A stretch of 64,000 nt of DNA from Paraspadella gotoi (GCA_051294375.1 CM119263.1:1352510-1416509); one strand, 5' to 3'. Positions 3,634 to 53,810 are shown, counted from the stretch's first letter. Program-made: numbers and translations. Notes: generated from the sequence alone by a model not told the origin.

Positions 3634-6600
3634 ATGGCATCAAAAACTTCCGTCCCTTTGGGCGCCCTTCCCATTTCTCTTCCAAGTCAGGCTCGCTCCT
3701 TGACGAACCCGGACGAGCATAGTGCCATTTCCTCGGCCCAGCGTCTCGCGACGACGTCGCCCATGACTTCGGAAGTGACTTTGTCCTCGGTGATGCCGGG
3801 CGCCGAGCCCGTCGCTACCGTCGTCGTCGCAATGCCCACGACATCGTTGTTGGCGCCGATGGAGGCGTCGACGCCGACCAGTTCCGAAGCGACGGCGGAA
3901 GGGCAAATCGGCGCCGCGGAATCGAACGCAGTCGACGCTGGCGCCGTTTTGCAGGACCCAACGGTGCAGCAGTGGCTCAATCCCGAGGAAGATGATCCAC
4001 CCGAATTGAAGAAGAGGTCGAGTCTCTTAAATTTATTCTTTTATAATTAGAATTCAATTTTTTTTTCTTAGGATATAAATTGCAATACGATTTGAGTCAA
4101 ATAATAGGATTTAATAAAATAATCGTGCCACTCGCAGAAACGAGAAGGTGAAGAAAGGCGAGTCGGAGCGGCGCCGTAAAGATCACATCGCCGCTTTGAT
4201 TTTGGAGTTGGGCGCCAAGCTTCCTCGCTCCTCCGGGACTCACAAGCAACTCCAGAAAGTGGGCATTCTGGGTCGAGCCATCGACTACATCGCCGAGTTG
4301 GAGCGAAAAAACGACGAGTCCGCCGAGGAACAGGGTGAGTCCTTTGTATGTCCATTAATATTTACGCTTTGAACCAGTTTACTTTTTATAGTTTACTTTT
4401 TACTTGGTTTACTTTTCATATTTTTGTAAAAAGAGTAAATTTTAAGCTTTGGTTTTTGTCTGATAGTTCTACTATTTTGACATATATTTTCGTTATATAT
4501 AATTTTTTGGGTAATTTTTGTAAAAAATTAAGAACCAAACATCAGCGGAAGAAACGAGCGATAATTGAATATTTGCGAGGAATTTATGCCGCAAATAATG
4601 ATAAATCTTGAAAGTGTGTATTTGCTCATTTCGTCTCAAAGTGCGATTTTTTCTTTTTGTCGTCCAGCTGTCACGCTCAAGTTGCTTCAGGAGAGAGTCG
4701 AAAGCCTGGAGAAGCAAGTTCTTAATTATCGTGACATTGTGCAAAAACTAACTCCGCCCGCCGCCGCCGCCGCTTCGTCGACGGCGTCGAAAAAGAAAAA
4801 AGGCGCCTCTAAAACAATAAAATCCAACTCGGCGGCGGCGTTTGCGACGGCGTCTCCCGCGGCGCCCTCTACGCAAGGATGCCTGCAGATCGGCCAACAT
4901 GTCTTCCAATCTGAGGGAGGCCAAGCTGCTGTATGCTATCCGAATCAAGTCGGCTCCGACGCGGCGATGGTAGCGGCGGCCAACTCCGGGGGTTCCATTC
5001 AAGCTTCGCCGGCGATGGCTCCCGGGCAAACATCGGGCCTTCAACAGGTTTTGCTCGTCAACGAGCAGGGAGTCCCCGTTGGCCAAACGTTCCTGCAGCC
5101 GGGACAGTCCCTTATGTCAACCACCGGATTGCAGCAGCAGCCTCAATCCATTCTGCAGCAGCCGATGCTTCAGTCTCACATATTGCAGCATTCAGTCATG
5201 CAACCGCAATTAATGGCCCATCCGCAGGGCGCAGGCCCGACGGAGCAGCCGGTAGCCTCTGCTCCAGAAACGCCGACGACGCCCGTCACTCCGGCGCCAA
5301 AAACTTCGCCGCCGAAACTCAAGACGTCAAACAAAAAGAAAGGGAAAAAATCGAATCTCGCCGATTCGAGCGCATCGTCGGCGACGGCGTCCCATTCGAC
5401 GTCGACACCCACGGCGCCCGCGGGAATGAAGGCGCCGCCTGGCGCTACTATAGTCCTCAATGAGAGTCAAAGCACTGCGAGCGCGGAAGCGAATCCACAG
5501 GCTGAACAGTCAACTGCTTACAGGTTAATTTTTAAGCTCTTTTTTTTTAAACACCTTAGTTAAAGGCTTTTCCCTGGCGGTGGGTGCTCCTACTGCTCCT
5601 TTATCTTGACTGATTTTTTAAAAAACCTTAATTTAAACGTTTTGCTCTATTTATTTTTCTGTAGGCCTGGTCAGCAGCTTCTGATTGGCCCAAATGGGCA
5701 GATACTCGCCATTGCACAGCCGAACCCGTCCTCCGAAACAACTTCTGCTGAGGCTGCAGGCGCTCCCTCCGCGGCGACTTCTCTCAATTATGCCCCCGGC
5801 GCCGCTACGACTTCTCAATCTGCAAATCCCAATTATCCACAAGCGTTACTTCTTCCTAACGGTCAAATAATCCCCGTCATGGCTCAGCCAAATATTTTGA
5901 TGCAGCAACAATCCGACGCCGGTGATTCATCCTCGACCGTTAAGTCGGAGTCTGACGCCGCTTTTCCTGTCAAACACGATTCTGTCGACGGTGATACGAC
6001 GCCGTCTTCTAACAAGTCGGCGCCTTCTCAGCCCGTGGCGCTTCTCGACGCGCCGGCATCAGACGCCGGTACAGGAAAGAAAAAGAAAAAGAAAACCGGC
6101 GTCTCTGCTAGTGCGGCAACGCCGGCCCCCGCCCCCACAGACATTCTCGCCAAAGCGGCCGAGTCCATCTTCGCCGATTTTGGCGATTTCGGCGAAACGG
6201 ATCAGTTCGGTGGCTTCGAAAATCCCCCAGGTCAGGAGGCCTCGATCCCAACGCCCACGACCGCATTGCCAACTATGACGCCGGATTCGGCGACGCCGGC
6301 GACGACGCCGCTCGTGCCGACGGCAACGACGCCGTCGACGAAGGGACACGAAGCGAAGAAGAAAAAGAAACCTGTGATGAAGAAAAAGAAGACTCTGGAT
6401 TCGGTGGGTGACGAAGCGACTCCCGCCTCTACTCATCACTCGACGGCCTTAGCATCCAAGCCCATCAAATCCATCAGCCCTTCCCTTGCGCAGTCGCACA
6501 TGATTCCGCCCGCCGCCTCATCCTATCATCTCTCCCGATCTACTAACATGCAAATACCGCCGCCCCGTATCATCATGGTTTCCGCCGCCGACGGGAAGCA

Positions 6601-9600
6601 GATCGACGAATTCAAACCGTCCGCCGCGCAGCCGGTTCCGCCGCCTCCTCCGCCGCCCTCGTCGACATCCGCGCCTTCGGCGGAAAAACGTGGAATCGTA
6701 GATAAAAAAGACGAGGATCATTGCAAGAAAAGCAAGAAAAAACACGATGGTCACGTCGTGTATACGTCCTCGAAGGACCTCGACGAAGTATTGGACGCCG
6801 TCGTTTGCCGCGTCGCTTCCGCAGCGGCGGGCGAAGAGAAGGCGGAGGCGAAGGTCGTCGTGGAGGGCGTCGATTCGGAGTCGCCTCAGCCGGAGGAGAG
6901 CCTTCCGAAGAAGGAAGCGAACATCACAAAAAATTTGTTGAAGACGCCTTCGTCAGAAACTTCCAAGTCTTCGGCGACGAAATTACCGAGCAAACCCGCA
7001 GATCCTTACGCCTTCGACGATGACTTGGAAGAGGCGGAACCGGTGCTGCCTCCACTGAGGAATAAAATTGCCAGCGGCGGTGGATCGCCTTTCAAGTCCC
7101 CCTCCACGAAAAATTCGTTAGACTCGAAACCTTCGTCAAAACTAGAAACTCTTTTGTCGCCGCCGTCGACCCTCGCGAAGACCGTCGATAGGACGATGCC
7201 TTTGCTGAGAGTCTCGGAGGAGGAAGACTTCGTTAAAAAACGTTCAAAAAGCAAAGAGGAAAAGGAAAAAAAGAAAAAAAAGAAGCGTAAAAAAGAGAGG
7301 AATAGCGGAGAGCACCTATGCGGCATTGAGAAGACTCTCGATGCGTCGGCGCCGACTTTGACGGCAGAGTTGCCCTCGAACAAGTCGGAAGATCCGGCGA
7401 CCCTCGACGACGCAATGGAACCTTCTCTCGCGGAGACGACGACCGATGTTTCGCGCGGAGGGAAAAGTGTCGAGGACTCTGAGGTCGAGTCGAGACTCGT
7501 TCTCGACACTTCGTCCACTGAAAAGAATTTGGCGCCCAGGATTTCTGGCGACGCCGTCAACTCCGCCAGCGCCGGCGTCGAAGATTCCGGCTCTGCCAAA
7601 TTTCACGAAGAATCTTCTGCTCCCGAAACGAGGAGTTACGGCGCCGCTATGAAAATTAACAACGGCGTCAACTCTGTTTCCGTCGTTGGCGGCGCTTTCG
7701 CTATGGGCGACGTCGAAGAAAGGATCAGTTTCGACGTCAGTGACATCGAAAAAGTTTTGGATCAAGTGGAGAATTTTAAGGTTAGTTATTTTTAGTCTAT
7801 TTCTTTTTTCGTGAATGTGTTAAAAATTAAATGGTATTGTGTAAACATTAGTGTTTGTTGCTGAATCAGTTCCAGGACAACTTTTCCAAAATATTTTGTA
7901 AAACTTTAATTATTCTTATTAAGAGCAAATTTTTTTTTTCTTCCTACTTGATACATATCATAAACGTTCGTCGTCGTTGTTGTTGTTGTCGTCGTTTTTT
8001 GTCATGAACACAATAGATAAAACTTTTAAAATCACCAATCATCGAACAAAGATATCAAATGTGCAGTTGAGTAGTTTTCACTCATCCGAGTGCACATATA
8101 ACCGAGCGGTTTTTAGTCTGATCTGCTTATTAGCAGATTCCGACTCTATAATTCACTTTGTCGGTCCCACCCCAAAATCTTGTCGGTAAGTCATTATTTT
8201 CATATCAGAACCTCGAATTATGATAAATTATGCATTGTGTTAGATCCTTTTTTTCGCTGTGTTTTGGTTATTAGAAAGAGTTTGAATTATTTAGTTTCAA
8301 CAACGATTGTTTTAATTTCATTTAGAAACGTACATGTTTCGGTTCTTAGTTGGCTCTGTATTGGAAACTTTGCCCTCTCTCTCTAATTCTCCCTCTTTCC
8401 CTCCCTCCCTCTCTCCCTCCTTTCCTTTGCACAAAAATGTAAACTAGTTTTCAGATCTGTTGATGCTGATGAAGGTTCGCAACTAAGAGCCGAAACATGT
8501 ACGTTTCTAAATGAAATTAAAACAAACTCTTTCTGATAAATTATGCAGAATGATGTCCGTCCGTCCGTCAAACCTTAGCAAAAAACTCCAAATACTCTTG
8601 ATTGGATGGATGGATTGGAATGAAATTTTGTGTGTGGGTAGGGAAGTGTGTGATTGAGCTGGATATGAAGTTTCGATGGTATCATGCGAGTAGAAAAGAG
8701 TTTAAATGGAAAAAACAAAAATATATATTTCACCATTTGAATGCCAATTACTCATGAGTGGATAGAACGATTTATTTTAAATTTTGTATGTGGATAGGAA
8801 AGTGTCTGATTAAACTGAAAATCAAGTTTCGATGGAATCGTCTGAGTGGAAATGAGTTTAAATGGAAAAAATAAAAAAACCTGTTTCACTAATTGATTAT
8901 GCTTCTTTTCGTTTTATATCAAATGTTAATTCAAGATGTATGAATTAATCAAATAATTAATCAGTTACTTAACCAATTAGTCACTTAAATAATCACTAAT
9001 TAATTAATCGGTCAATTAATCAATAAATTGATTATTCAATCAGTTTATTTATTTATTAATTAATTATTAAATCAATCAAGTCAATCGTTATCGGCATTAT
9101 TGTCGTCGTCGCCATCGTCGTCGTTGCTTTTGTCGTGGTCAGTGATGAAAAGACCTAAAAACAAACATTTGGAATCAAATTAATTAATTAAATACCTCTA
9201 ATGATCGTGGGTAGATCCGACATTGTTAGCTCAAAATTTTATTTTTACTTGTCATAGTTTAATTTAAATGAAACATCTAATATTATTTTAACTGAATCAT
9301 CGACGTTAAACGTGCTTTTCGTAATATTGTGGGGAAGACAATTCGCCGATCCACTGGCCAATTATTTTGGCCAAAGATTCTGGCCCACAATGTAGTCGTT
9401 ATTTTTCTTCGGTTACTTAGTTACTTAGTATTTATTTAGTAAAATTCCCATCATCCACATTATGAAAAAACAAAAGCGAAAAATATCAGTGAGAAATATT
9501 ACGTGATTTAAAAAAATAATTTAAAAAATACAACTTATTCATACCAGGGACACGACAAAGCAAAAGAAGAAGAGTGCGAACCACGAACATCGTCGGCGGA

Positions 9601-16069: not shown

Positions 16070-17147
16070 ATGTCAGGAATCGCGCTGGGCCGCTTGTCGG
16101 AAGAGAGAAAGGCTTGGAGGAAGGATCATCCCTTTGGATTCGTCGCGAAACCCAAAGTCAACGAAGACGGAACTCTCAACTTAATGCACTGGGAATGCGT
16201 CATTCCAGGTATGAATTAAATTTTGAAGAGACGTCATTTGCACAGGTGAGGTATATTGAGATAAGTTTTTTGTGGAATTTACAAGTGTATTTTTTAAATT
16301 TTTGCCAATATTTCGATTTACATAGACTGCCTTCATCAATGTAAATCGAAATATTGGCAAAAATTTTTAAAAAATGTACTTGTAAATCCCACAAAAAACT
16401 GCCTTATCTCAAGGTATGAATTTATTTTAATGTATTAAGATTATATCGTGATTATATCTTTGTGTGTATGTAATAATAATGAAGCATTTTAATGAATTTG
16501 CATTAACGCTCAGTCACTCCATTTTCGCGTCCTATCCATTATAAAATCTACATCCCAAACAATTGACGAATAAATCCATCGTTCAGGGAAAAAAGGGACC
16601 CTTTGGGAAGGCGGCCACTACAAACTCCGAATGCTCTTCAAAGACGACTTCCCTTCCAGTCCCCCGAAATGTCAATTCAATCCGCCGCTTTTTCACCCCA
16701 ACGTTTATCCTTCGGGTAAGAGATGGCGCTTTTTCTCTCATTTTCTTTCACTACATAACGTTTCCCCCTCTACTTCCTACGATTTTAGGAACCGTTTGTC
16801 TCTCTCTACTTGACGAGGAAAAGGATTGGCGGCCCGCCGTGACCATCAAGCAAATTCTACTGGGGATTCAGGTTAGCGGATTTGTTTCTGCCGTCTCATG
16901 ACTTGTTGGATTGATTTCTTTTCCGAATTATTCTGATGATTTAAATTTTAATCACAGAGTTTTGGAAACTTTTTTTCTGCAAATGCCGATTCTCATTTGC
17001 TCCATTCTCTTCCCCAAGGCGCTCCTCAACGAACCCAACGAGAAAGACCCGGCTCAGGCGGAAGCCTACACCATCTACCGGGAAAACAAGACCGAGTACG
17101 AGCGAAGGGTTCGAGCCGAGGCGGGCAAGCACCCGCCCAACGCGTGA
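16070..17147 (+). CDS. UBE2I: SUMO-conjugating enzyme UBC9. Exons approx. 16070-16208, 16587-16715, 16789-16871, 17019-17147
   Basis: [28 protein letters not shown]...[11 protein letters not shown]|[43 protein letters not shown]|[27 protein letters not shown]|[20 protein letters not shown]...: the UBC9 signature throughout, with the catalytic Cys present. Confidence 0.97.
16256..16412. repeat. ~157-bp near-perfect inverted repeat (MITE-like) in the first coding intron of UBC9
   Basis: The arm ttgagataag...tttttgccaatatttcgatttacat is mirrored by atgtaaatcgaaatattggcaaaaa...cttatctcaa around a ~15-nt spacer. Confidence 0.7.
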
Positions 17148-17864: not shown

Positions 17865-19233
17865 TCAATGCTTAAGCATGGACGACGAAAGGAAACTGTA
17901 TTCTCCGTCGTCTCCCTCGCCCGAGTCTTCGGACGGAGCGCTTCGTCCATCGTTGAGCCCCTGATTTCGCCAAAAGTTTGACATCTTGTTCCTAACGTCT
18001 TGGTTCATTTCGTTCCACTCTCTCTGCCACGTTCGTAGCGACGCCACTTCCGGTTCTTTTCTTACCAAAAATCCTCGCCAGTGAGACTGAATGATCGTCG
18101 CCGCCTTCAGTCGAGGGCAACAAGAAATAAGATGGTATTTTTTTTGTCTGGACTCGTAACAAAAAAGTGAATTGAACTCTGATCGAAATTCCGTCCACTT
18201 GCGGGGACTTTCTTATTATTATTTTTACATTTTTTCAAATTTTGAATCGATCAATCTCCGTCAAACACTCGTCAGTCATTTTAGCTGATAAAAAAATAAA
18301 AAGAGCAGGCATCAAAAGGAATCTCTCTCCACCTGCTCGTCGGAAAGAAGGAGCGAAAGCGGAAGAGCTTCTCGCGGATGATCGGCTGAAAATTCTTTGC
18401 AGAACGGAATTTCCAAGACGCTCAATGGTTGAACCTTAATCGGGAAAAAGATATTGTCAAAAGTCTGACCCATCCGACCCACCCAAATAATAAAAAAGTC
18501 ACCATTCGTTGAGGATGTCTCGGGTTGTTGTTAAAGAGCCATTCGGTGAGAAAGTCGCAGGCGTTGAACTTAGTCCGTTTGCGTTGGAAACATCGCTCCC
18601 TCCTTGCCTGAAACAGCATCTCTCTCAGTCCCGGAAGGAGCACAGGAAAGAGTAGTCGTTGCATGTATTCTTTAGATGAGCACTTTGCTGGGTCCTCTGC
18701 TGGGGTGAAAGATAAGTAACGTGACTTTTTGCCTCTAGTTTGCAGATGTTAAACAATTTCGCGAAGAAACTACTTTTTCACAAGGTATCCTAGACTTACC
18801 TTTAAAAAGAGTCGTAGTCTCGATGTCATTTGTTCGCTCCAACTCTTCGTCTATGAAGGCGTGGCCGACCGAAGCCGGATGTCCTTTCGCTGGGTCGAAC
18901 TCGCTCGTCACGTCCACGTCCACATTATTGATCTAAAAAAGTTATTAGTTGATCGTCTCGTTTAGTCCTTGTTTATTTTACTAAGTTTCATTTTCACAAT
19001 GAACTCGCATTCCCCTTGAATGTCTGTTCTTCAAGGTTCCTACAAGTTACCTTCGCGAAAAGTTTTCCGTAAAAGACGGGCGTGACGATCGCTGGGTTAA
19101 AGTCGACAATTTCGGGAGCATCATATTTAGAAAAAGGGGAACTATCTTCTTTCTCTTTTCGACAAATGTCATCCCAAATGCTCGGTTCAGGAAATTTGAC
19201 GAATAATTGCGATGGTTTTGTTTTTTCGCTCAT
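17865..19233 (-). CDS. IQCK: IQ domain-containing protein K (about 5 exons)
   Basis: EYMQRLLFPVLLPGLREMLFQARRERCFQRKRTKFNACDFLTEWLFNNNP...LEIPFCKEF..DHPREALPLSLLLSDEQ|AATIIQSHWRGFLVRKEPEVASLRTWQREW matches the IQCK family pattern; GT-AG junctions present. Confidence 0.85.
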
Positions 19234-19961: not shown

Positions 19962-20213
19962 TCATCTCTGTCTACACTTGACGTAAATTAAGCATGCCAG
20001 TAAAACGAAAACAACAAAAACAGCGACCGACGCTACGACGATAAATCCAGTGGCGGCACCGGCGCCGATGTCGATGTTACGGCAAGTGCGTCCGCTGCAA
20101 TCCGGACCCATGTATTTTTTCAACAGTTCGTCCATATCCTCTTTGATTTTTCGTCTTCTTTCTTCATACGATAAAGTTGAATTTGATTGCGATTCCTGAG
20201 GACATTCGATCAT
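19962..20213 (-). CDS. 83-aa ORF or terminal exon of a single-pass membrane protein, function unknown
   Basis: Charged helical N-part, two Cys, a ~25-aa hydrophobic stretch (GFIVVASVAVFVVFVLLACLIYV) and a basic stop-transfer tail KCRQR. Confidence 0.4.
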   Translation of the reverse strand: MIECPQESQSNSTLSYEERRRKIKEDMDELLKKYMGPDCSGRTCRNIDIGAGAATGFIVVASVAVFVVFVLLACLIYVKCRQR

Positions 20214-20633
20214 TATTATAGATTTAGTAGTAAACCACCAAAGTCAGGGGCAAGATAGCTTATTTATTAAATTGCGGCGACGACAACAACAACGAAAAAT
20301 TTTTATATTGGTTGTACCAATTTTATAAAATTCAGCTCCTTGAATTTTGATGCTGGGTGGAGTACAATATAGTATTCCCCGATCTAATACTTCAGGGAGT
20401 GGTCTTTTCATACAATTGAAACATTCTTTGAAACATTATACCACTTCATTGATAGGGAAGCCAGGTATTCTGGGAGTGAATTAACGAGACTGTGAGAGAG
20501 TCTTGATTGAAAGCTTGCAGGGACCTGCTATGTCATTATCTTGTAAGAGTGATGGAGGCCTTAAACTACCTAAGCCTGTCCAAAGTCAGGGGCAAGATAG
20601 TATGGTGGACTAAAATCCACCAACCGTTCATCA

Positions 20634-20705
20634 GCGGCCATTGGTGCCGGAGGCAAGTCATTCGCCTCCCAACCCAAAGGTCCGGGGTTCTAGCCCGGTG
20701 GTCGT
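20634..20705 (+). ncRNA. tRNA-like (Gly-CCC-related) segment in the 5' LTR; second copy at 21052-21123. Not a functional tRNA
   Basis: 7-bp acceptor-like stem GCGGCCA/TGGTCGT, A-box-like TGGTGCCGGAGG, T-arm CCGGG-GTTCTAG-CCCGG with B-box-like GGTTCTAGCCC, and TCGCCTCCCA as in tRNA-Gly. The anticodon stem pairs poorly. Confidence 0.6.
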
Positions 20706-20708
20706 CTG

Positions 20709-20782
20709 GCAGTTAAGAGGGACGGGGCACTTAACCCGCCTGTAACTCGGTGTTACAGCCTGATCCGAAGCTCAGGGACTGC
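20709..20782 (+). ncRNA. Twister ribozyme, type-P5 permutation (5' LTR copy)
   Basis: P5 GCAGT/ACTGC; GAGG-GA-CGGG; T^AA site at 20732/20733; P2 CCC (A bulged in GAGG); T2 GC; P3 CTGTAAC/GTTACAG; P4 CCTGA/TCAGG; L4 TCCGAAGC (T1 TCCG:CGGG, T2 GC:GC). P1 is nearly absent. Confidence 0.8.
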
Positions 20783-21126
20783 TTATATTGAACGGTTCTG
20801 TCACTAACTCATAACAATAATTACTGTCTCTTCATTGGTGAGCTCGACTTCCGAACACAACACCAGCAACACTTTCAGGCGACATGCCTCAACCTGGCGA
20901 TGCACTTTCCGCCCAAAACACATCAGGCGACATGCCTCAACTTGGTGACGAACTTTCCACCAACAACAACAATTCACTGAAGAGACGCAACAGACTTCTC
21001 CCTACGGGAGGGGGGATGTATGGTGGACTAAAATCCACCAACCGTTCATCAGCGGCCATTGGTGCCGGAGGCAAGTCATTCGCCTCCCAACCCAAAGGTC
21101 CGGGGTTCTAGCCCGGTGGTCGTCTG

Positions 21127-21200
21127 GCAGTTAAGAGGGACGGGGCGCTTAACCCGCCTGTAACTCGGTGTTACAGCCTGATCCGAAGCTCAGGGACTGC
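21127..21200 (+). ncRNA. Twister ribozyme, type-P5 permutation (3' LTR copy)
   Basis: Identical to 20709-20782 except one base in the P1 linker; predicted cleavage at 21150/21151. Confidence 0.8.
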
Positions 21201-21642
21201 TTATATTGAACGGTTCTGTCACTAACTCATAACAATAATTACTGTCTCTTCAATAGCTTATTTATTATATGAATGAATAATTTTTATATTGGTTGTACCA
21301 ATTTCATATAAATTATTAAGTATTCGGGCACAAATAAGCGTTTGTTGTGCGAATTTTTTGTATGTGACCAATACAGAATAAAAGACTGCTATTACGTTCT
21401 GGATTCTACTCTGTTAAATTACCATAATATATAATTTTGTATTTCACTGTTACTAATTTTGAAATTGCCGTTTTTAAGCCAAAGTTTTTCTTTAGGTTTT
21501 AGTCATCTTTTCCAACTTGTTTAAAAGGTAATACTGGATAAAATATGTTTTGGGCAGACTTGAACTGAGTGCTCAGACAAATGGACATCGCCAGACTTGT
21601 CAGACTCGGGCGCCGATCTCCTCACCTCGCAACCACCAAGAC

Positions 21643-24626
21643 ATGGCCGACTCAGAATATTTCGCATGGTAATGTTTTCATTTTAGGATTATGAGAATTC
21701 TTGGTTGTTGAGCTTTCAGTAACCTCAGTTAACTGAGCGGTTTTTGAAACTAAAAAAACATTTATTTTAATTTACGTTCTTATAATCCCTACCCTCTGTT
21801 TATTATTTATTTTCCTTCATAAATTTTGAATCTCAGGTCGAGCGGGAGCGGAGATGAGGAAGCAGAACCCGGAGAATCCATGGGGCTGCCTCCGTTGTCT
21901 TCCGAACTGGGATCACCGACGGCGGCGCGTCCTGGCGGAACATCCGGGCGACACTCTTCGGGCGATAATCCTCTCTCCGACGTTCGCCCTCTGTCGCCCT
22001 TGCCCTTCTTTACGGGCGCCGCCTCTCACGCTGACCGGACGCCCGGTGAGCCTCCCCGATCTCCGCTCCCTGCTTCCGGCCCGACTTCGCCCATGCGTTC
22101 AGTCTCCGTGGGGCCCAAGGCCCCCAACAGGCGTCGGTCGCGCGCTCTCTCAATTTCCCAGGCACAAACGGGGAAGACGACCATGATACACACCAGCTCC
22201 CGCACCATCTACACGGCGGGAAGGCCGCCTTGGTACGATTCCGAGGGAACGATCAAGGACGCCTTCGTCATCGGTATCTGCGGAGGAAGTGCCTCGGGTG
22301 AGGACGGCTCACTGTCCACTTTACTTTACCGAGATCGGCAACTAAAAAGTGTTTCACGTACGTTTCCAGGAAAGACGACCGTGGCTCAAAACATAATCAA
22401 AGCTCTCGATGTTCCGTGGGTCTCGCTTTTGTCCATGGATTCCTTCTATAACATCTTGACGCAAGAGCAGCACGCCTTGGCAGAAATGAACGAATATAAC
22501 TTCGATCATCCAGGTTGTCTAAGTTCGAAACACATTTTGCTGCACCCAGCCGCCCGGACTGCTCACTTAGCAAGTGTGGTTCGTTAACTCTTTCTTGGTT
22601 TTCCGATTCACAGATGCCTTTGACATCGATTTGGTAGTGAAGACGTTGCGGAAGCTTAAGGAGGGAAGGCAGGTCGAAATACCCATTTACAATTTTCACA
22701 CGCACGCTCGTGAAAAGCACAAAAAGGCCATCTACGGGGCCAACGTCATCATCTTCGAAGGAATCATGGCTTTCGCCCACAAAAACTTGCTGGAACTAAT
22801 GGACATGAAGATATTTGTCGACACAGGTTTATTATACGAGGGACTTCAGTTACTTCATAAAATCCATTTAAATTTATTCGTAATACAAATCGAAAATTTT
22901 AGTAAAAGATTTGCTCGTCTGTGACGCTCGAACCTGGACCCTCAGCGCCTTAAATGATGAAGCATTTGTCCATTTTGTCCATATTGTCCAAACTAACAGG
23001 ATTAGTTTTCCTCTATGAAATTTAGAATTTCTTTTTTCAGATTCGGACATCCGATTAGCTCGTCGACTCAAGCGGGACACGTTGGATCGCGGTCGCGATA
23101 TTCACGGAGTTTTGCAACAATACGAGCGTTTCGTCAAACCCGCTTTCGAGCATTATATTGAGCCCACTATGATGCATGCTGATATAATCATTCCAAGGTA
23201 AATACTAAAATAAATTCTGAATCAAGTCTTGAATTTTAAATAATTCGCTCACGACCTCCCTTTCAGGGGTGGCGAGAACAGAGTCGCCTGTCAGCTGGTA
23301 GTGCAGCACATTCATACGCAATTGACGCGCAGGGGTTTTCAGTTGCGGCAGCAGTTACGCATTGGCCATTACGAGAAACGCCTACCGAGTAACTTTCATC
23401 AGTTGGAGAGCACGCCACAGATTCAAGGTAGGCTTTTTTTTCTTTCTTTAATGCCCTCGATATGAAAATAGAGCATCTCGTTTCCGGGATGAAGGCCTTC
23501 ACACAATCATCCGCAACCGCGAAACTCCGCGGGACGAGTTCGTCTTCTACTCGAAGCGGTTGATGCGACTTCTGGTCGAATTCGCTCTCTCATTCCTTCC
23601 TTACAAGACGGTCGAGGTCGAATCTCCTCAGGGAATTCCTTACCTGGGTCAAAGGGTTCAACAACAGAGTTCCGTTTGCGGGTAGGCCAGTGGTCTTAGC
23701 GGAAGCGATTAACTATTTATATTAAATTGTATTTCATCTTCATCGCTTTCGCTCTCTCTCCAGAGTTTCCATTCTTCGGGCTGGAGAGGTCATGGAACCA
23801 CCGTTGGCTTCCGTTTGCAAAGTAAGCGGTTTTATGAAATTGGTACAACCAATATAAAAATTATCCATTCATTTAATAAATAAGCTATCTTGCCTCTGAC
23901 TTGAATCATAAATAACCTTAATCCCATTACAAATTATCCTCTCCACCCCTTTCTGTTCAGACTTTTAAATATTTTTAAAGTCTAATTTAGTAAAACAAGT
24001 AATCTTGCAATTTTTCATATGTGAATTTATATGTGAATTTATCGAGTTAAAAATAAAACCAATTGTAATTTCAGGACGTGCGCTTAGGAAAGATTCTGAT
24101 TCAGACGAATTTGAACACGGGAGAACCCGAGTTGTATTACTTGCGTCTTCCGCGCGAAATCGGAAAGGGCTGGGTCTTTTTGATGGAAGCGACGGTGGCC
24201 ACGGGAGCGGCGGCCATGATGGCGATCAGAGTTTTGCGCGATCACGACGTTCCCGAAGGTTGGTTCCATCCTAAAATCAATCTGCCAATTTAAGCTGTTT
24301 ATTTTTCTATTAAAATGTTAAATAAATTCGATTCTGGTTTTTTTAAATTTTAAACGGTACTATTATCTAAGTTAGATGTTAGATAGTTTTTACTTCCATA
24401 ATTTTTCCCTGGCTAATAATAGTAATAATACCGATTGCTTTTAATTTCAGATCGTATTATCCTCTTGTCCTTGTTGATGGCGAAATCCGGCATTCACGCT
24501 ATCGCCTACGCTTTTCCACGGGTCAAGATTCTCACTACGGCCTACGACCCAGCCTTCGACGAGAACTTCCACATCATTCCGGGAATCGGAAATTTCGGCG
24601 ACCGATACTTTGGCACCGACGATTGA
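21643..24626 (+). CDS. UCKL1: Uridine-cytidine kinase-like 1 (uridine kinase + UPRTase-like domains), about 10 exons
   Basis: [25 protein letters not shown]|KTTVA (P-loop), LSMDSFY, YNFDHP|[52 protein letters not shown], and C-terminal [17 protein letters not shown]. Confidence 0.95.
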
Positions 24627-25078: not shown

Positions 25079-26085
25079 ATGTTTCGAAATGACCCTTTCT
25101 TCGCGAATCACCGCGCAATGATGGATTCCTTCTTTGGAGAATCTGCTTTTGCTGTGGAAGGTATTGATTTTTCGTTGCATAGAGTTGGTCATTTTGATCT
25201 CTTAAAAACTTAGCAATTGACGGCATTTGATCCAACATTAGGGAACCAGGCTGGCCATCAAGATCGCCGGGGCGTGGAACGACGGCAGGAACGCAGGATT
25301 GATCCATTTGAGGACATGCACAGACATATGAACGATATGATGTCCAATTTTGGACGAGGCATGATGGAATCGGTAACTTTCTTTATTTCTTCGATCGTTT
25401 AAAACTATATATCTTTGACTTAACAATATTTTTCTAATATTACCCAATCTTCTTCATTATTATTAACGTTTTATTTATTACTCTTATTCTTCTTCCCTCA
25501 TTAATTGTTAAACTGATAATTATTAATATTATAGAACTTTGGCAACGGCAACGACGGTCACGTCTTCAGTCATTCCTCCGTCTATTCATATTCTAGCGAC
25601 GGTCAGGGTCCGCCTAAAGTTTATCAAGCGGCGAGGGAGGAACGTCGTGGTCCTGGAGGGATCAGGGAGACGAAGAAGGCGCTTAAGGACTCAGAATCTG
25701 GACTTCAAAAGTTAGTTTTACCTCATCCGCGTTATCTTTTAAATTTGAAGGCAAAAAATTGCTCACTTTTTTCCCTATTTTGTTCAGAATGGCGGTCGGG
25801 CGTCACATGGGCGAACGCGGCCACGTCATCGAGCGCTCGCAAAACTTCCACACCGGCGATCGGGAGGAGCATCAGAATTTCGTGGGCATGACGGAGGAGG
25901 ACGGCACGGCCTTTCACGACGAATGGTCACGGGCCACGCAGGGTCACGCCCGTCACCAGAGACGCGCTGTGGCGGAGGAGACTCGAGACGGGCGTCGGGG
26001 TCATCGCGGTCAACGCGCCCTGCCAGCCACTCCGCGAGATCAAATGCTAAAGGTCGAAGGGCGACGCGTCAAGGGAGATCATTGA
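25079..26085 (+). CDS. MLF: Myeloid leukemia factor family protein (4 exons)
   Basis: MFRNDPFFANHRAMM...HVFSHSSVYSYS.DGQGPPKVYQA..EERRGPGGIRETKKALKDSESGLQK|MAVGRHMGERGHVIERSQNFHTGDREEHQNFVGMTEEDGTAFHDEW matches the MLF1/MLF2 core. Confidence 0.92.
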
Positions 26086-29109: not shown

Positions 29110-38593
<9,484 letters not shown>

Positions 38594-47312: not shown

Positions 47313-47641
47313 TAGCGGGCGCCCAGATTTCGGTGATTCTAAGCGAAAATATTTTGAAGAATTTCTCTTGGATTTCTTCAGAGCAATAAAACTGGGAAAG
47401 TAAAGGTAAGTTAAGGAACTCTTTTTACCTTACTTTTTCCTTTGGAACCTCGATAGAAAAGCGGGTTCTATTTTTAGCCGTCTCGTTCCATCGCTGCGAG
47501 GAACCGGGCAGCGTAATCCCTGCAAGAACTCGACAATAAACTAGATTAATAAAGTTTTTATTCTTGGTTTTTTTAATTTGAACATACGGAAATAGAGCTT
47601 TTTTAGGGGAAGAGGATAACAAAAAATAACAAAATAACAAA

Positions 47642-47808
47642 AAATTATCCATTCATTTAATAAATAAGCTATCTTTCCCCAGACTTTGGACAGGCTTTGG
47701 TGGTTTAAGGCCTCCATCACTCTTACAAGATAATGACATAATGACATAATGACATAGCAGGGTCCTTCAAGCTTTTAATCAAGACTCTCTCACAGTCTCG
47801 TTTATTCA
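47642..47808 (-). repeat. Uninterrupted (empty-site) copy of the repeat that hosts the TRIM at 20.6 kb
   Basis: Reverse complement of 20478-20600 joined directly to 21257-21285, with a single ATAG. Confidence 0.85.
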
Positions 47809-50685: not shown

Positions 50686-53269
50686 CTCTGTTTATTCAAC
50701 ATTCACGGTACCGACTGATTCAGTCCAAATTTTTCTTTTCTGTTCTCACCCCCTCACAGAACTCCAAGCGGATTAACATTCACGGTGAACGTCCTTCCTT
50801 CCCTTAGAAAAATGCCAGAAGGGAATGTGGACATTATCAGTAAATTAATGTAATTATAGTTCTTTGTTTAGACCTATAACTGAATTATCGGCAAAGTTGA
50901 GAGAAATCTATTATCTCTTTTGAGAACGAAATTTGTCAGAGACAATTTCTTAAAGAACTAAAAACGCATCTAAAGACACAAGTATCATTTGATTTCTTTT
51001 ACTCATTGATTCTTATTTTATTTCATTTATGTTTTCAGCCTCGCGAGCATCTTGTCTGGTTGTCGGCCCCGTCTTTTGTTTTAAATTGTGGTTGACAGTC
51101 GCGACACTGTGGTCACTTGTCACTGGTCACTGGTCACTGACCAGTGGTCAGTGTTCATTGTGTTCAACTGTGCCTCCCGTCGGTTTAATAATATTGTGGT
51201 TATCCGCGTTGGAGTAATTCCGCTCCTACAAATTAAAAGCGACGATAAATACTCGACGTTTACGTAAATTAGGTGATAGATTTTGTCGTGTGACACTGTG
51301 ACAACTGCGACGCTGTGACTCTTTCACCTCACTCTGTCACTTTTTCTAGTGACACTTTCAGGAAGGAGTGATTCATTAATTTTTGTCGCTCCTTTTTTAT
51401 CACTTTTTCTTTTTTCCTTAATGTGCGTAATATTAATCTACCGTATTTTCATTTCACTTGCACTTATTGCATTATAATATTTTAGTTTTTATGGCAATTT
51501 GCATGAGAAACTCAAGAAAACGAAGTTCCTCCGGGCGAAACACATTTAATTAGTTTACAAGTGAAACAAAATTGTGACTTTAAGCTAAAATGCGGGGCTT
51601 TCCGAAAAGATGCCCGAAATTTGACTGAACGTCGTTAAAATAAGAGTAATCTGGACCAACTGGATTCTGCTTTTTGATTAATTGATAATTGAATTTTTCG
51701 GGTTTGATATTTTGCGTGAAAAAAAAACAGCATTTTTTACTTCGTCTCTTTTCTTTTCTTTTTTTCAATGCAATTTTAATTTGAAAACAAAAAAAAGTTG
51801 ATATGAATTTGAAATAAAAAATTGAGATTTTCGTCTCTTCTTTTCCTTTCTCTTTCCTTCTTTGTTCCTCCGAAAATTTAAAAAAAGTTTTAAAGAAAAA
51901 GTTTTTTCTAACTTTTCAGAATTTCTTGCATTTGAAAAGGAACCGAGAGGAAAGGGTTTTTTTTGTTCAAATGAATTTAAATAAAAACTGTTTTGATTTG
52001 AAATAAACATTAACGAAACCTACACCCAGGATTAATTAAATACAAAATTGAAATAAAAAGTTTTTTCTATGATTTTAAGTAGATTTAAAAATTTTTTTAT
52101 TAGTTCGCAGTGATGTGAAAAAATTGGGAGAAAATAAGGGCTCTCTTTTCTAAAAATTAAATATTAATATTTAACCTAAATGTGTTCCAAACTAATCACT
52201 AATCCCTAATCCTTAATCCCTAACCCTAATCCCTAATCCCTAATCATAAGCCCTAATCTAATCTTGAACCCTAATTCGCGTTCTGGGAAAATAAGGCCAA
52301 ATAAAAAGGTGAGATAGAGAGAGAGGAAAAGAGAAAGAAGAAAAGAGAAATAGAGAGAACGAGCGGTTGTGTCATGATCTCATCACAATTCTACGAGTGG
52401 ACTCGCGTAATTGATACTCAATGATGAAGATCCTGTAGGAGGATCTGGAGGAAGAGGAGGAGGAGGAGGAGGAAGAGGAGGGGGAGATGGATTATGTAAG
52501 AGAAAGGAGAACGATACAGATAGGGAGGAGAGAGATAAAACGAGGAAGTAAGAAAAAAGGAGAAAAATAAAAATGAAGGAAGGTTTTTGGGGGAGGAAAG
52601 AGAGAAAGAAGAAAAAGGAAATGAGAGGAGGAAAGGAGGAAAGAGAAAGAAGAAAAAGAAAATGAGAGGTGGAAGGGAGGAAAGAGAGAAAGAAGAAAAA
52701 GAAAATGAGAGGAAGAAGAGAGGAAAGAGAGAAAGAAGAAAAAGAAAATGGCAGGAAGAAGGGAGGAAAGAGTGAAAGAAGAAAAAGAAAATGAGAGGAG
52801 GAAGGGAGGAAAGAGAGAAAGAATAAAAAAGAAATGAGAGGAGGAAGGGAGGAAAGAGAGAAAGAAGAAAAAAGAAATGAGAGTTGGAAAAAGAGGAAGG
52901 GAGGAAAGGAAAGAGACCCGATTCGTCGTCATTGCGTCTCAAATTATAACGGATTCAGGAAACGTTCTCTCCTTTTTTCTCTTCTTTTTAGAAAAAAGAA
53001 AAAAACCCAAATGACCCAAGAAATAAAGGAAAGGAAGGAAAAAGAAAACGGGAGTCTGCAGATCAGAGAGAAGAAAGGCTGAGGAGAAAGAGTGAGAACA
53101 AGTTTGAGCAAATAATGTCGGATCTGCCAACGATCATTATCGGTAATTAAATAATTAATTAATAATTAATTTAAGTTAATTAATTATTTCATTAATTAAT
53201 AATTCATTTATTCAAGTTAATTATTTAATTAATTAGGTAATTGCATTGACATTAAAAATAAAAAGAAAA

Positions 53270-53810
53270 AAAAGCATAATCAATTAGTTAAACAGGTTTT
53301 TTGTTTTTTCCATTTAAACTTATTTCCACTCTGACGATTCCATCGAAACTTGATTTTCAGTTTAATCACACACTTTTTTACCCAAATACAAAATTTCAAG
53401 CCAATCGCCCTATCCATTTATGAGTAATTGGTGTTCAAATATTTAAACTCATTTCCACTCGGACGATTCCATCGAAACTTCATATCCAGCTCAATCACAC
53501 ACTTCCATACTCACACACAAAATTTCATTTCAATCCATCCATCCAATCAGGAGTAATTGGTGTTTTTTGCTAAGGTGGGACGGACGGACGGATGGACGGA
53601 CAGATGGATGGATGGATGGACGGACGGACGCACAGACAGACAGACAGACAGACGGACTGACGGACATCATTTTTTTTGCATAATTTATCATAATTCAATG
53701 TTCTGACATGATATAAGTGTGTGCCCGACAATATTGAGGGGGCGGACCAATGGACCGACAAAGTTAATTATAGAGTCGGGATCTGCTGATAAGCAGATCC
53801 GACTAATAAG
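53270..53810. repeat. Second copy of the Helitron/DINE-like repeat, lacking the hammerhead insertion
   Basis: Reverse-complement similarity to 8095-8880, with a (GGAC/GGAT/CAGA)n microsatellite. Confidence 0.65.

Follow-up and report, generated by a model that had tools for sequence, protein, structure and literature searches.

A 64-kb stretch of the Paraspadella gotoi genome (GCA_051294375.1 CM119263.1:1352510-1416509; the window, below, means this whole stretch of 64,000 nucleotides) contains a protein-free long terminal repeat (LTR) element of 652 nt at positions 20601-21252, and each of its two LTRs includes a fold like that of a type-P5 twister ribozyme. The element is a non-coding miniature LTR retroelement. 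Comparison with a related twister in the repeat that flanks the element supports the view that the LTR motif descends from a twister, and a tRNA-like segment preceding the motif suggests a Helenus-type terminal-repeat retrotransposon in miniature (TRIM). Positions are those of the window, and features lie on the + strand unless marked otherwise.

Anatomy of the element

The 5' LTR (20601-20834) and the 3' LTR (21019-21252) are 234 nt long each, start 418 nt apart, and have TA...CA instead of TG...CA termini. They differ by a single mismatch, A20729 in the 5' copy and G21147 in the 3' copy. A 4-bp target-site duplication (TSD), ATAG, is found on both sides (20597-20600 and 21253-21256). The primer-binding site (PBS; 20836-20848) begins one base after the 5' LTR with a TGGTGA.. 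tract and is of the tRNA-Trp type. It is identical to the 3' end of honeybee tRNA-Trp (Fig. S2 of PMC10886601) at 11 of 13 positions, with one wobble in addition; the commonest family variant, T20844C (about 97% of the depth in X1, one of the read runs described below), raises the match to 12/13. The polypurine tract (PPT; 21006-21016) consists of 11 purines and is followed by TG and then by the 3' LTR. An initial annotation of this DNA had reported two LTRs of about 235 bp, a PBS, a PPT, a 4-bp TSD, and no credible coding capacity, and all of these are borne out. The internal region (20835-21018, 184 nt) is non-coding. Across the element eight open reading frames (ORFs) of at least 25 aa occur, the longest overlapping ATG ORF has 75 aa, and no Pfam match to reverse transcriptase, integrase, or GIY-YIG domains is found among 94 translated frames of the window.

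Some smaller features accompany this layout. A 7-bp hairpin is predicted at the start of the LTR (20603-20622). The internal region includes a 46-nt duplication (20875-20968; 85% identical) with a small hairpin in each copy. The segment 20973-20995 repeats the U5 end and the PBS start (20824-20842) imperfectly and in inverted orientation; in the predicted fold the internal domain is closed by this segment, which could regulate primer access.

Twister-like folds in the LTRs

In the 5' LTR the twister-like fold covers 74 nt (20709-20782), with G20721 as general base and a predicted cut between 20732 and 20733. Its counterpart in the 3' LTR lies at 21127-21200, with G21139 and a predicted cut between 21150 and 21151. 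The cleavage motif (U20732, A20733, A20734) and the catalytic G20721 and A20722 are intact, and the pseudoknots consist entirely of Watson-Crick pairs (three of three in T1, two of two in T2). P5 pairs 20709-20713 with 20778-20782, P3 is present, and P4 has 5 bp with an 8-nt L4 (pair probability at least 0.97). The twister core proposed in the initial annotation (U^AA, GA, P3, P4, an 8-nt L4, T1, and T2, in the P5 permutation on the sense strand) is found at the positions given there. The P1 hairpin is missing, and a 6-nt linker takes its place (20726-20731 in the 5' LTR, 21144-21149 in the 3' LTR). It is reported that P1 is dispensable in tested twisters (PMC5408937), and that defects of P1, P2, and P4 are tolerated in tested natural twisters while those of pseudoknots or catalytic bases are not (PMC11662667, PMC5408937). 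Among the family variants listed (40 of 90), those inside the fold turn a P5 wobble into a Watson-Crick pair (G.U to A-U) or affect the P3 loop and the linker position that differs between the LTRs.

A twister descriptor, built on the Rfam P5 consensus and written with the sequence already known, picks up all four phage P5 twisters that pass Rfam and were used as controls. In the 64-kb window it matches three sites, namely both LTRs and the twister of the flanking repeat, and it matches none of 20,000 shuffled LTRs. When loosened, the descriptor matches 9 of 5,000 shuffles and gives four further, spurious hits in the window. Rfam gives no hammerhead match on the LTR motif.

Several results weigh against reading this motif as a working twister. 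L4 is closed by an A-U pair, whereas a G-C pair is near-invariant there (PMC5408937), and P2, which in type P5 has 4 bp, is reduced to two pairs with a C.A mismatch. Rfam gives no twister match on the motif (RF02684), either at the gathering score or at E values up to 10. Our own covariance model, made from the four phage P5 twisters, places the four twister sites of the window at ranks 1, 2, 3, and 6 of 10, none of them significant; the LTR sites are ranks 2 and 3, with an E value of 0.39 and with P4 and L4 alone covered. The motif therefore fails the covariance-model check that the initial annotation had suggested. When the monomer is folded without pseudoknots, a competing helix buries the T1 and T2 strands, and P2 has a probability of 0.0, while in the same test P2 forms at 0.8 or above in three of the four control twisters. 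Relative to the minimum-energy fold, the nested twister fold is less stable by 9.4 kcal/mol. As for stability, the 96-nt twister fold by itself is not unusual (z -0.29).

A related twister in the target repeat

The element splits another repeat, the target repeat (20238-21308). This has a unit of about 330 nt in partial tandem, is 5'-truncated, and has a fixed 3' end at 21308. It carries a second type-P5 twister of its own (20537-20599; predicted cut between 20562 and 20563), and the LTR element is inserted at the 3' edge of this twister. Rfam Twister-P5 scores it at 29.9 bits (E 4.1e-5), which is under the gathering score of 37.6.

The twisters of the target repeat and of the LTR can be compared without gaps over 27 nt, of which 19 are identical. 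They have in common an odd 3-nt P2 strand and a 6-nt palindromic linker. Between them, two-sided changes keep the pairing in T1 (C-G/U-A), T2 (G-C/A-U), and P2 (C-G/A-U), and in the linker (GGCGCU/AGGCCU). Note that these pairs were tabulated by script, as MAFFT gave no structural alignment across the two families. This comparison with a neighbouring twister is the best evidence for the descent of the LTR motif from a twister, and it suggests a common source. The initial annotation had overlooked this second twister. One result on the target-repeat twister goes the other way: it misfolds in the same pseudoknot-free test as the LTR copies. A similarity between the LTR and the target repeat 3' of the twister was also considered and lacks significance (its score is reached by 1,328 of 2,000 shuffles); homology is therefore claimed for the ribozyme alone.

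The target repeat is as abundant as the LTR element. Loose ends behind 21308 are found in 193 contigs of X1, 186 of X2, 86 of X5, and 31 of X9. Pieces of the repeat in the window lie at 20238-20325 (+), 20537-20599 (+), 23830-23902 (-), and 47640-47808 (-), and the copy at 47.7 kb has a mismatch in P4. The hallmarks of Penelope-like elements and Naiads include a 5'-truncated partial tandem with a fixed 3' end, and Naiads lack canonical hammerheads (PMC8557442). The target repeat has this layout. Only short end fragments of it are present in the window, and a search of 94 frames for reverse transcriptase and GIY-YIG domains gave no match. The target repeat is Penelope-like in layout and could represent the end of a Naiad or, alternatively, a non-LTR retrozyme that carries a twister. 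The LTR twister probably derives from this adjoining Penelope-like family, or else both come from a shared source.

The same comparison bears on another explanation, that the twister is a mere passenger: a Penelope-like piece captured in a Helenus LTR and now misfolded or silent, in an element that moves as an ordinary TRIM. The predicted misfolding, the weak P2, and the lack of an Rfam score agree with capture, as does the great abundance, in this genome, of a donor-like family. The two-sided changes could even predate capture, if this took place from a third family. However, the catalytic and pseudoknot positions have stayed intact, the changes relative to the neighbour twister are two-sided, and a different ribozyme class is seen by eye at the same place in the wasp Helenus-2 LTRs described below. 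We consider a passenger unlikely.

Palindromic linkers

The linker of the 3' LTR is self-complementary (GGCGCU). The linker of the target repeat (AGGCCU) differs from it at three of the six bases and is also self-complementary; the chance figures for the two linkers are 5.3% and 1.6% of 6-mers. The predicted duplex energy is -8.3 kcal/mol for two 3' copies, -9.1 kcal/mol for the linker of the target repeat, and -2.9 kcal/mol for the 5' copy with the 3' copy. Metazoan hammerheads with a helix of 1-2 bp and a palindromic loop cut as dimers, a behaviour believed to leave monomeric circles intact (PMC4209133). By analogy, the two LTR copies of the twister probably complete each other's P1. This palindromic P1 is not part of the initial annotation.

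Some observations speak against such a dimer. In this copy of the element the palindrome of the 5' LTR is broken by A20729, folding of the full transcript predicts no pairing of the linker palindromes (probability 0.0), and P1 is dispensable in the twisters tested, so a dimer is perhaps unneeded. Among the open-access papers listed for such twisters, none deals with a natural dimeric twister as judged by title or abstract start.

tRNA-like head and Helenus identity

Directly 5' of the twister lies a tRNA-Gly(CCC)-like segment (20634-20706 in the 5' LTR, 21052-21124 in the 3' LTR), which is a putative internal promoter for RNA polymerase III (Pol III). An acceptor stem of 7 bp and a T arm of 5 bp with GGTTC can be recognized, the anticodon position reads CCC, and the D and anticodon arms are decayed. 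The box words GGTTC and YGG are present, and TRGCY is matched at three of five positions, which is a weak match. A tRNA descriptor matches 2 of 20,000 shuffles. The family variants T20702C and T20705C convert both G.U pairs of the acceptor stem into G-C pairs. The sense strand of the element contains no T4 run, and the first T-run is found at 21281.

Helenus elements (TRIMp3) are tRNA-bearing TRIMs for which transcription by Pol III and mobilization by Gypsy helpers have been proposed (Kojima 2024, PMC10886601). Here two LTRs, a PBS, a PPT, a 4-bp TSD, no protein, and a length of 652 nt (below about 1.3 kb) are all found, together with tRNA boxes in weak form. In the reading given by the initial annotation, the anatomy, the mobility, and the twister identity are supported; the tRNA-like head was missed. 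Against the Pol III assignment, the segment is not found by default ARAGORN or by the Rfam tRNA model. ARAGORN calls it a tRNA-Gly pseudogene solely at the lowered threshold of 80, alongside three other weak calls. The absence of T4 is also weak evidence when taken alone, since 1,459 of 5,000 shuffles (29%) lack such a run as well.

The state of this segment could also mean that it is a relic, and that the ribozyme acts on read-through transcripts or on those of RNA polymerase II (Pol II), insulating the element. The decay of the tRNA segment is in keeping with this, and there is a TATA-like TTATAT at 20783-20788, 3' of the fold. But variants in the acceptor stem restore pairing and GGTTC has been kept, and an R region placed in this way would be lost if the 3' LTR were cut upstream of it. 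We regard this explanation as highly improbable.

Repeat abundance and mobility

Contigs of reads from four public runs (X1, X2, X5, and X9; one organism, three studies) were aligned to 20200-21400. X9 may be an RNA run, and its coverage is not counted as evidence of transcription. Runs X10-X13, from other organisms, share a small fraction of sequence words, and the claims made here do not extend to other species. In X1 the summed depth is 0.65-2.7 million across the element, compared with 217 in the unique flank; summed depth is not a copy number and is read solely as very many copies. At the left end, unrelated A+T-rich sequence stands upstream of 20601 in 73 X1 contigs. At the right end, unrelated flanks follow 21253 in 63 contigs of X2, 22 of X5, and 21 of X9, and they follow 21255 in 49 contigs of X1. 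An empty-target joint, 20596>21253 (656 nt skipped, four letters fitting both sides), is seen in X1, X2, and X5 and not in X9. These joints come from three DNA runs of two studies, and they are probably other copies of the target repeat rather than allelic forms of this locus. Three further unfilled targets are seen in the window (20238-20272; 23830-23902 and 47640-47808 on the - strand). A preference of the element for insertion into the twister repeat was considered and rejected, since most flanks of the element are unrelated A+T-rich sequence.

The initial annotation had named a simple local duplication as a finding that would overturn it. Combined with a chance resemblance to a ribozyme, this alternative has a single point in its favour, the missing Rfam match of the LTR motif. 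A duplication, however, does not account for the TSD, PBS, and PPT, for defined ends with varied flanks on both sides, or for the lack of a descriptor match in 20,000 shuffles; the last two of these refute the alternative. It is hardly credible at all.

Scans for further copies gave five matches in metagenome contigs, all due to chance (similarity of at most 20 nt), and none in viral contigs or prokaryote genomes. Tandem multimers, a helper element, and RNA evidence were not found in the material examined, and this weighs against the replication model proposed below.

Proposed replication

Cutting once in each LTR would release a predicted monomer of 418 nt (20733-21150), which could form a circle. 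As a circle it has a predicted fold of -133.6 kcal/mol (z -2.7), and 1 of 100 shuffles is as stable. We propose a joint model in which the element is transcribed by Pol III, the transcript is cut once per LTR, and the 418-nt unit is circularised and reverse-transcribed by a Gypsy-type helper. The arguments for and against this model leave it evenly balanced in our judgement. The initial annotation had likewise predicted cleavage, a 418-nt circle, and a Gypsy helper, with RtcB as a possible ligase of the cleaved ends.

According to this model, Pol III would start near 20634 and read through the element because there is no terminator inside it. The ribozyme would stand in for the T-run found after the tRNA in most of the Helenus LTRs examined, and it would set both ends of the RNA. 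P1 would be formed by pairing of the two palindromic linkers within one full-length transcript. Such pairing would favour the cutting of RNA with two LTRs and spare the circle with its single ribozyme, as in dimeric hammerheads. The 418-nt unit would have to be circularised to be copied because it lacks an R region, as has been proposed for plant retrozymes (PMC4918200). tRNA-Trp would then prime reverse transcription across the junction, which would rebuild a full LTR with its tRNA head and twister, and a Gypsy integrase would insert the DNA with a 4-bp TSD. By analogy, the likeliest class of helper would be the CsRn1-clade Gypsy elements, which share the tRNA-Trp PBS and 4-bp TSD with this element and differ by their TGT termini (PMC2582038).

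The ribozyme could instead form the 3' end of a linear Pol III RNA (20634-21150). The 5' copy would then be slow, the 99-nt tRNA head would serve as R, and ordinary strand transfer would follow with no circle. Cassandra elements have a short R region defined by Pol III (PMC10886601), which offers a precedent; there is no T4 run in the element, and the competing helix could slow cutting. On the other hand, the folds predicted for the two LTR twisters within the full transcript are alike and give the 3' copy no advantage, and R would be lost on cutting of the 5' copy. A linear RNA of this kind seems to us rather improbable.

Other features of the window

The first half of the window is gene-dense and the second half is rich in microsatellites. 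Uridine-cytidine kinase-like 1 (exons 21823-24623) is the gene that follows on the + strand; its best matches are from invertebrates, and among the named ones bivalves, an annelid, and a brachiopod rank first by narrow margins. Other exons belong to a bHLH gene (4118-4369), a ubiquitin-conjugating enzyme (16545-17144), an IQ-motif protein (17868-18212), a homologue of myeloid leukemia factor (25535-26082), and a rhodopsin-family receptor (34279-35437). Another dispersed repeat family, about 78% identical, is found at 8110-9238, 29787-30096, and 53100-53809. It has an internal tandem of 129-156 nt, and at 8307-8525 it shows a terminal inverted repeat of 46 nt.

Comparison with known systems

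Animal Helenus families resemble the element in being non-coding TRIMs below 1 kb with a tRNA-like GGTTC segment in the LTR, a PBS, a PPT, and a 4-bp TSD (PMC10886601). A start with TA has a precedent in Helenus-3_MeDo. The tRNA-Trp class of PBS is that of Gypsy-32_NVi and Helenus-2_SyJa, and the closest Helenus class is that of Helenus-2_SyJa and Helenus-2_SyUm, with a tRNA-Trp PBS (all PMC10886601). The element differs from Helenus by its twister, by the lack of a T-run after the tRNA, and by a more decayed head. In the text of PMC10886601 no ribozyme in Helenus is described, and the word ribozyme occurs once, in the title of a reference. In the passages seen from its consensus file, ten words of the twister loop or core gave no twister context; line breaks in the file may hide some words.

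In the same file (PMC10886601 DataS1), a putative type III hammerhead can be recognized by eye in Helenus-2_SyJa-LTR and Helenus-2_SyUm-LTR, some 25 nt downstream of the tRNA-like T arm. A GUC triplet and a core of CUGAUGA and GAAA are present; the stems have 7, 4, and 6 pairs, and the 12-nt loops are complementary to each other. These two LTRs have no T-run after the tRNA, unlike neighbouring wasp LTRs in that part of the file. The hammerhead core word occurs five times in the file; two occurrences are those of SyJa and SyUm, and three are fungal and motif-free in the passages seen. Helenus-2_SyJa and Helenus-2_SyUm may therefore be insect LTR retrozymes. If the hammerhead is right, ribozymes of two unrelated classes are found at a single position of tRNA-headed LTRs, an argument that cutting there is under selection.

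Retrozymes have been assigned to an LTR type with type III hammerheads in plants and a non-LTR type with type I hammerheads in animals (PMC7761336, PMC6765202, PMC11722881, 10.64898/2026.07.22.740005), and one of these sources refers to unpublished work on elements with type III hammerheads in bacteria or insects. A tentative wider reading, more open to doubt than the replication model, is that animals have their own LTR retrozymes. These would be Pol III-driven, tRNA-Trp-primed Helenus elements in which the terminator was replaced by a ribozyme at least twice (a twister from a Penelope-like repeat, and a type III hammerhead in Synergus wasps). They would replicate through small circular RNAs, and the twister would be activated as a dimer. 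If this is true, the division between LTR retrozymes of plants and non-LTR retrozymes of animals is broken in both halves, and the class of ribozyme can be exchanged while its position in the LTR stays. The case bears on the role of ribozymes in LTR elements (making circles or forming ends) and on the RNA ends of Pol III TRIMs. It also bears on the transfer of ribozymes between Penelope-like and Gypsy-dependent elements, and on dimer-dependent twister cleavage.

With the type-P5 twister of Rfam (RF02684) the LTR motif shares the order P2b-GA-T1b-linker-UAA-P2a-T2a-P4-L4, the catalytic G and A, and the pseudoknots. It differs in having a 6-nt palindrome for P1 (17-20 nt in the four controls), a 3-nt P2 with C.A, a P3 stem, and A-U at L4. 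The minimal hammerheads of Penelope-like elements (PMC4209133) likewise combine a short helix with a palindromic loop by the cut and are completed by a second copy; they are hammerheads and lie in pseudo-LTRs. The link between twisters and retroelements that is in print is the RTE element Perere-3, whose twister variants are also weak in P1 and lie at the 5' end of this non-LTR element (PMC8501958). Neither Penelope-like elements nor Perere-3 are LTR elements of the integrase type.

No animal LTR element with a twister was found in the open-access literature, a scope that does not include subscription journals, Repbase, and Dfam. Within that literature, the layout inferred here is in print solely for plants, with a different ribozyme. 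The plant LTR retrozymes (Cervera et al. 2016, PMC4918200) have in common with this element a ribozyme on the sense strand in both LTRs, a PBS, a PPT, a 4-bp TSD, no coding capacity, and a predicted unit without an R region. They differ by a tRNA-Met PBS, a unit of 600-1000 nt instead of 418 nt, the lack of a tRNA-like head, and a plant host (PMC4918200). The definition of plant LTR retrozymes also includes the accumulation of unit-length linear and circular RNA, and here the circle is a predicted one. The present element would work like a plant LTR retrozyme but lies outside that definition, with a twister-like motif in the place of the type III hammerhead.

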